Position numbers and translations under genes: made by a program. Below the pieces are notes generated by a model, which ran no database searches, was not told where the DNA came from, and saw only the letters and a program-made list of their open reading frames with translations. A stretch of DNA of 64,000 nucleotides, from the NCBI RefSeq assembly GCF_054482525.1, contig NZ_CM137006.1, one strand, 5' to 3'. The stretch's first letter is position 1. Every line of letters starts with the position of its first letter. This document shows, piece by piece, positions 57,117 to 57,884 of the stretch.

Positions 57117-57131
57117 GGTAATGACTCCAAC

Positions 57132-57635
57132 TTATTGATAGTGTTTTATGTTCAGATAATGCCCGATGACTTTGTCATGCAGCTCCACCGATTTTGAGAA
57201 CGACAGCGACTTCCGTCCCAGCCGTGCCAGGTGCTGCCTCAGATTCAGGTTATGCCGCTCAATTCGCTGCGTATATCGCTTGCTGATTACGTGCAGCTTT
57301 CCCTTCAGGCGGGATTCATACAGCGGCCAGCCATCCGTCATCCATATCACCACGTCAAAGGGTGACAGCAGGCTCATAAGACGCCCCAGCGTCGCCATAG
57401 TGCGTTCACCGAATACGTGCGCAACAACCGTCTTCCGGAGACTGTCATACGCGTAAAACAGCCAGCGCTGGCGCGATTTAGCCCCGACATAGCCCCACTG
57501 TTCGTCCATTTCCGCGCAGACGATGACGTCACTGCCCGGCTGTATGCGCGAGGTTACCGACTGCGGCCTGAGTTTTTTAAGTGACGTAAAATCGTGTTGA
57601 GGCCAACGCCCATAATGCGGGCTGTTGCCCGGCAT
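57132..57635 (-). CDS. insB: IS1 InsB (expressed as InsAB' by frameshift)
   Basis: 167-aa ORF recognised. Confidence 0.9.
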
Positions 57636-57829
57636 CCAACGCCATTCATGGCCATATCAATGATTTTCTGGTGCGTACCGGGTTGAGAAGCGGTGTAAGT
57701 GAACTGCAGTTGCCATGTTTTACGGCAGTGAGAGCAGAGATAGCGCTGATGTCCGGCGGTGCTTTTGCCGTTACGCACCACCCCGTCAGTAGCTGAACAG
57801 GAGGGACAGCTGATAGAAACAGAAGCCAC
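57554..57829 (-). CDS. insA: IS1 InsA
   Basis: 91-aa [25 protein letters not shown]... recognised. Confidence 0.95.
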
Positions 57830-57884
57830 TGGAGCACCTCAAAAACACCATCATACACTAAATCAGTAAGTTGGCAGCATCACC

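Follow-up and report, generated by a model that had tools for sequence, protein, structure and literature searches.

IS1 generates adjacent, or 'replicative', deletions, and work on the gal region supplied the classic studies of such deletions. In these events a resident IS1 is kept with one of its junctions unchanged, its other end is linked to a new position within that replicon and the intervening DNA is lost, leaving an element without a target-site duplication from which a nested series of deletions can extend. The mechanism is already known, and a duplication-free IS1 next to a deletion is textbook material, a long-established result of IS1 activity. The element itself has been described as 768 bp long, bounded by imperfect inverted repeats, carrying insA and insB genes with a -1 frameshift and duplicating 8 or 9 bp of its target, and its transposition within the chromosome is reported to be replicative (PMC12428005). 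A parallel is offered by the Lenski lines, in which duplication-less copies of IS150 ('IS-del') lie beside deletions of 14 bp to 49 kb and in which all such copies were traced to a pre-existing IS that then produced adjacent deletions, often extended stepwise (PMC11708052). The genes affected in the present case belong to the dihydroceramide cluster yghO(aca)-aasR-epi-acpR-spt (ECD_02850 to ECD_02854) of E. coli B / BL21(DE3), which has been partly characterised biochemically, the aasR product being an acyl-AcpR synthetase (PMC9386255).

The locus analysed here lies in a stretch of 64,000 nucleotides of contig NZ_CM137006.1, referred to in its entirety as the window, and combines an IS1 without duplication, the loss of the DNA between two sites on one chromosome and a nested series of endpoints anchored at the element. 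It differs from the IS1 adjacent deletions above in being a natural chromosomal allele that is reconstructed from genome comparison rather than an observed event. The IS150 series of the Lenski lines parallels the five nested right endpoints of the window IS1 described below, but IS150 belongs to the IS3 family, and the order of events was proved there by time-series samples, whereas the ancestor is unsampled here.

An IS1 without target duplication between yghS and spt

The element at 57117-57884 is a complete IS1 of the IS1A type with its transposase genes on the minus strand (Table 1). End to end it shows 100% identity over 768 bp to RefSeq-annotated IS1A copies (comparison loci L001 and L007-L010), and RefSeq labels the identical DNA as 'IS1-like element IS1A family transposase, programmed frameshift'. 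Both termini match the IS1-end pattern GGTRATGMYKCCAACTTAYTGAT with 0 mismatches (0 chance matches expected; 0 of 100 shuffles matched), and 18 of 23 positions are shared by the two arms of the inverted repeat. All of this fits IS1 as it has been described (PMC12428005).

Table 1. Features at and around the yghS-IS1-spt junction, in window coordinates
Feature	Position	Strand	Description
yghT	56118-56810	-	230-aa ORF, intact; last undisturbed gene left of the junction
yghS 5' stub	56984-57116	+	44 codons from the RefSeq GTG at 56984; 39 from the ATG at 56999
Left 9-bp flank	57108-57116		TGCCAACAG; intact genomes continue with AACACATTT (yghS)
IS1	57117-57884	-	Complete element, 768 bp
IRR end (right-type inverted repeat)	57117-57139	+	GGTAATGACTCCAACTTATTGAT; adjoins the yghS stub
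insB'	57132-57635	-	167 aa; frame overlaps insA; -1 frameshift joins both
insA	57554-57829	-	91 aa
A6C frameshift motif AAAAAAC	57572-57578	-	IS1 position 307
IRL end (left-type inverted repeat)	57862-57884	-	GGTGATGCTGCCAACTTACTGAT; adjoins the spt stub
Right 9-bp flank	57885-57893		CAATACAGG; in intact genomes ACACTTCAT (spt continuation) precedes
spt 5' stub	57885-57972	-	29 codons + 1 nt; reads into IS1
acpR	57972-58220	-	Specialised acyl carrier protein, 82 aa, intact; homologue ECD_02853 (PMC9386255)
epi	58252-59166	-	NAD-dependent epimerase/dehydratase-family reductase, 304 aa, intact; ECD_02852 (PMC9386255)
aasR	59163-60887	-	Annotated fatty acyl-AMP ligase, intact; ECD_02851 (PMC9386255)
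yghO (aca)	61258-62400	+	Putative N-acyltransferase of the ceramide pathway, 380 aa, intact; ECD_02850 (PMC9386255)

On the left, the yghS stub runs into IS1 and terminates one extra codon later. Translated, it matches the start of the intact 237-aa YghS (L004) exactly, and RefSeq treats it as an incomplete pseudogene in genomes with the same DNA. On the right, the spt stub is an exact prefix of the intact 390-aa Spt (L006), for which the gene is annotated 'spt: serine palmitoyltransferase', and the ATG of spt overlaps the acpR stop codon (TAATG, 57970-57974). The ceramide genes were assigned from RefSeq annotation together with the published cluster (PMC9386255), and yghT encodes a dTMP kinase according to the annotation of 100% identical DNA in strain 2452. 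The start codon of aasR is annotated differently among genomes, giving a gene of 1689, 1692 or 1725 nt, and the longest aasR ORF in the window (59163-60914) begins at a TTG at 60914.

A simple insertion of IS1 is expected to be flanked by a duplication of 8-9 bp, and none was found at this element, as its flanks read TGCCAACAG and CAATACAGG. With each boundary allowed to shift by up to 3 bp and repeats of 7-11 bp considered, the best shifted match reached 5 of 7 positions, a score equalled by 38% of random position pairs in the window and thus at chance level. A hidden or shifted duplication was therefore rejected. Two simple IS1 insertions in related genomes served as positive controls: the one within spt of strain 2023CK-01509 (L004) is flanked by a perfect 9-bp duplication (CCCGTTGTC), as is the one in the pheV-island integrase gene of CFSAN061762 (L007; CGTACACCA). 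The target duplication is a mark of the insertion event and not of the element; its absence here indicates a secondary rearrangement.

The first-pass annotation of this DNA had already placed an IS1 at this position, and the coordinates are exactly as it proposed, with the length of 768 bp, both ends and insA/insB' bearing out a complete element; its statement that the element lacks a direct repeat at its boundaries also holds, since the flanks differ and no repeat of 8-10 bp was found. It had further read the left flank as the first 39 codons of yghS and the right flank as the first 29 codons of a minus-strand gene coupled to the ACP gene, both running into the element, and these readings are confirmed by the ATG at 56999 and by the TAATG overlap, respectively. 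Two of its terms need adjusting. Both genes were said to be beheaded, and both are indeed cut at IS1, but it is their 5′ ends that were kept and their 3′ ends that were lost, which makes them truncated. The gene on the right, rightly noticed as a stub and named an alpha-oxoamine synthase, is specifically spt, the serine palmitoyltransferase gene of the dihydroceramide cluster.

In strain GN03551 (L017:20400-21166), the same anchored IS1 measures 767 bp, with a 1-bp deletion at the window equivalent of 57650-57651, and RefSeq lists it as frameshifted; this could reflect a genuine inactivating mutation or a sequencing error in a homopolymer. The annotation of the corresponding copy in GN03139 also differs.

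The lost interval and its bearing on the dihydroceramide pathway

Alignment to genomes with an intact yghQ-yghR-yghS region and operon, which the first-pass annotation had suggested as a check, mapped both endpoints of the rearrangement. In the intact loci L004 and L006 the two IS1 flanks are colinear, in the same orientation and exactly 7,458 bp apart, and the breakpoints coincide to the base with the ends of IS1. Of 5,426 complete E. coli genomes, 4,089 contain at least 80% of the interval between them, so that its presence is the majority state. An IS-free genome in which the ACP gene directly adjoins yghS was not found; those 4,089 genomes have the interval instead.

RefSeq annotation places in the lost interval the remainder of yghS, yghR, full-length yghQ (annotated as a 449-aa 'lipopolysaccharide biosynthesis protein'), genes for a hypothetical protein of 274 aa and for a YtfJ-family protein, an lptF paralogue, an lptG paralogue and codons 30-390 of spt. 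The deletion took at least seven whole or partial genes. All four losses previously listed from the window (yghR, yghQ and the remainders of yghS and of the aminotransferase-like gene) are among them, but that list omitted four further genes, namely those for the 274-aa hypothetical protein and the YtfJ-family protein and the lptF and lptG paralogues. In intact genomes (as at L004:1925-6847), the lptF/lptG paralogues, the YtfJ-family gene and the flippase-like yghQ stand right beside the ceramide genes, and one might speculate that together they form a dedicated export route for the lipid product.

The order aasR-epi-acpR-spt′ plus yghO in the window matches that of ECD_02850 to ECD_02854, so that BL21(DE3) has the same genes in the same order. 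In BL21(DE3), however, spt is intact and activity of its enzyme has been demonstrated (PMC9386255), whereas only 29 of 390 codons are left in the window, which accordingly lacks a functional serine palmitoyltransferase gene. With spt reduced to this extent, the committed step of the dihydroceramide pathway is gone. The source strain has no route to 3-oxo-sphinganine through Spt, although four of the pathway's five genes appear intact. It is also without the lptF/lptG paralogues, yghR and yghQ. Scoring aasR, acpR or yghO in a survey of gene presence would miscall the ceramide pathway as present.

Nested right junctions and the route to the deletion

Over 3.1 kb around IS1, the window is 100% identical to strains 2452, AH50 and 20A24 and 99.9% identical to GN03551 and GN03139. 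The two junctions were searched for separately with 100-bp probes, counting single-piece matches in the 5,426 complete E. coli genomes. The left (yghS) junction was found exactly in 9 of these genomes and the right (spt) junction in only 5 of those 9, while none of the 5,426 genomes had the right junction without the left one. The other four carriers of the left junction (CFSAN061762, RS571, 1008S13 and MSB1_9I) contain the same IS1 (768 of 768 positions) in the same orientation and with the same left flank, but their IRL end adjoins other DNA: a site 436 bp upstream of sslE in RS571, an IS3 remnant in the pheV island in CFSAN061762, the 3′ end of the island integrase gene in MSB1_9I and a point 508 bp further into the island integrase gene in 1008S13. 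The IRL end therefore has five different partners across related genomes.

These four alternative right sites are found at increasing distances along the chromosome, colinear with the usual order of genes: yghS, spt operon, yghO, glc, sslE, gsp, pheV island. In the nine genomes, then, one IS1 junction is constant and the other occupies five nested positions, from which it follows that at least four of the five right junctions arose as secondary events at a resident IS1. The series shows that this IS1 copy has taken part in deletions repeatedly. All genomes with the left junction also have a deletion to its right, and the ancestral simple insertion, with IS1 at either endpoint and the interval still present, was detected with the 100-bp junction probes in none of the 5,426 complete genomes. 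As a set, the nine carriers of this single anchored IS1, with their five nested endpoints, make a clean natural example of stepwise IS-driven genome reduction, and the nested-endpoint alleles could be used as lineage markers.

The first-pass annotation had offered two explanations for the junction, an IS1-mediated adjacent deletion or recombination between two IS1 copies, and both are the ones that remain, now backed by the four sister genomes with other right partners. We consider it probable that a resident IS1 of the IS1A type made the 7,458-bp deletion that joins the 5′ ends of yghS and spt, and that it did so by a one-step adjacent deletion. A single IS1 would first have inserted, probably in yghS at TGCCAACAG, with the usual 9-bp duplication. 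Transposase would then have joined the IRL end of the same copy to a new target on the same chromosome, CAATACAGG in spt, by intramolecular replicative transposition (an 'adjacent' or 'replicative' deletion). The intervening DNA would have been lost as a non-replicating circle, and a single IS1 would have been left between unrelated 9-mers. This route is favoured because it needs one event per variant, where under its rival each variant takes two, a further directly oriented insertion and then a recombination. It is also favoured by the reported replicative transposition of IS1 within the chromosome (PMC12428005), and by the long-term-evolution precedent of duplication-less IS copies beside growing deletions (PMC11708052).

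The same end product would result from RecA-dependent homologous recombination within a pair of directly oriented IS1 copies situated in yghS and in spt, each originally with its own 9-bp duplication, which would excise 7.5 kb and leave a hybrid IS1. We regard this as possible, though with the balance tilted against it. The carrier lineage is rich in IS1, with about 35-40 matching places per genome, and recombination between IS copies is a frequent cause of missing duplications (PMC11708052). Moreover, independent IS1 insertions do occur close by: in the 5′ end of spt (L004, and also 23CRST014 and H167), where the copy of L004 is only 25 bp from the window junction, and in the pheV-island integrase gene of L007, which has a second IS1 with a duplication. 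However, each of the five right variants would need a second, correctly oriented insertion followed by recombination, and the predicted intermediates were not encountered, as IS1 at the CAATACAGG site in a genome that retains the remainder of spt occurs in 0 of the 5,426 complete genomes, and two IS1 copies flanking the interval at these sites likewise in 0.

Polymorphisms within the element have no power to reveal a chimeric IS1, since all compared copies are 99-100% identical. The anchored IS1 is the same in the aligned single-piece carriers except GN03551 (GN03139 being left out of this comparison), and neighbouring copies differ by 0-1 bases.

Returning to the adjacent deletion, its direction might also have been the reverse, with IS1 first in spt at CAATACAGG, a leftward adjacent deletion from the IRR end to yghS, and the four larger variants produced by later rightward deletions. 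Such a history, which we hold to be rather unlikely, takes the same number of events as one that begins in yghS and would fit the 5′ end of spt as a demonstrated landing zone for IS1, where one simple insertion lies at a distance of 25 bp and the endpoints of three other deletions within 90 bp. Against it, the right junction alone was found in 0 genomes and the left junction alone in 4, a difference that weighs weakly because it is expected in both histories.

Finally, IS copies are classic sites of mis-assembly, but an artefact of this kind (a repeat-collapsed, mis-joined assembly), like a duplication mutated beyond recognition, is hardly credible: the identical double junction appears in five genomes independently finished in different laboratories, including complete assemblies from China, Japan and the USA, on which ground an assembly artefact was rejected. 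The flanks, for their part, are 7,458 bp apart in intact genomes, so that a duplication has not simply decayed, and they resemble each other at chance level.

Spread of the allele and other IS-bounded losses

The allele is already in at least five public complete genomes, where its stubs are flagged as pseudogenes, and we found no discussion of this deletion allele in the literature searched. Among complete RefSeq E. coli genomes, the highest identity to the window over 25 kb was 99.1%. Between the window and 20A24, divergence is about 2% over 35-52.7 kb, with only 2 differences over 52.7-64 kb; GN03551 is likewise about 2% diverged over 35-52.7 kb and nearly identical thereafter. The divergence from AH50 is 1.5-3% up to about 56.1 kb, at the yghT/pitB boundary, from where the two are identical to 64 kb. 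These shifts in divergence, within window positions 35000-56100, look like recombination breakpoints around the deletion haplotype.

The deletion haplotype is present in at least two chromosomal backgrounds, and probably in three with the window's own source as the third. Its occurrence in several backgrounds points to a single origin followed by spread through descent and homologous recombination, or by recombinational replacement of the flanks, and the allele need not have arisen in the source strain. The near-absence of SNPs among the carriers, together with the intact state of the remaining pathway genes, suggests that the event was recent. Separately, the segment between hybG and yghU (window 51285-51346) measures about 62 bp in the window and AH50 and about 115 bp in 20A24, CFSAN061762 and others, a difference that breaks alignments; this length polymorphism may represent a variable intergenic repeat element.

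The region has been cut by IS1 in other lineages as well. At least 12 distinct IS1 junction pairs without duplication were found in the segment from pitB to the pheV island. Among them are at least eight pairs, each with a single IS1, in other E. coli lineages. IS1 joins spt to pitB codon 9 in the L002 group, to the DNA upstream of pitB in the L003 group and to pitB codon 13 in L005. It joins yghS to acpR in the enterotoxigenic O6:H16 group (L011), to an island in L012 and to gspS in L013, yghT to epi in L014, and the DNA upstream of aasR to the pheV island in L006. Several right endpoints are packed within about 230 bp at the spt/acpR boundary, a clustering to which ascertainment by the queries may have contributed. 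AT-richness is an unconvincing cause of this clustering at the spt 5′ end, where local GC content is 0.37-0.49 against 0.50 for the region. Nearly all of these elements face the same way, but this apparent bias was put down to ascertainment, as the search joined same-strand pieces only, the queries had one orientation and inverted copies rank low.

A comparable loss with another element marks the K-12-type locus (L018:6417-9782, strain HE_100-10), which reads yghQ stub, IS5, yghO. As in the window, spt and its neighbours are lost at the same locus and a single IS forms the boundary, but the element is IS5 instead of IS1 and the endpoints differ: aasR, epi, acpR and spt are gone, while yghS, yghR and part of yghQ are kept. 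Across the complete genomes, spt has at least 80% coverage in 4,093 and aasR-epi-acpR in 4,108, so partial states such as that of the window are rare, amounting to tens of genomes, and the operon is wholly absent in about 23% of genomes.

The recurrence of such junctions, along with the IS5-bounded loss in K-12, could be taken to mean that the pitB-to-pheV segment, and its spt end especially, is a recurrent target of independent IS-bounded loss that might reflect niche selection against a ceramide-type lipid or a putative LptF/G-like export, and not neutral decay in IS-rich lineages, but we think this reading unlikely. A companion reading, to which the finding of at least two and probably three flanking backgrounds gives rise, is that the deletion allele may move between lineages by homologous recombination.

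Two of the compared genomes contain additional rearrangements. In strain 2452, a second IS1 (L001:8770-9537) is found immediately upstream of aasR, in the opposite orientation to the first and with 1 mismatch to it. It too is without a duplication (GGGAATGCG versus AAGACCGAA), and the operon is joined there to ABC-transporter genes instead of yghO and glcC. A further IS1-associated rearrangement, by deletion or by inversion, is thus present in a genome that has the window's junction. In PSJ-36 (L012:2238-4998), pitB is split by an IS3 insertion, and a type II Zorya defence system is located just past the IS1 junction.
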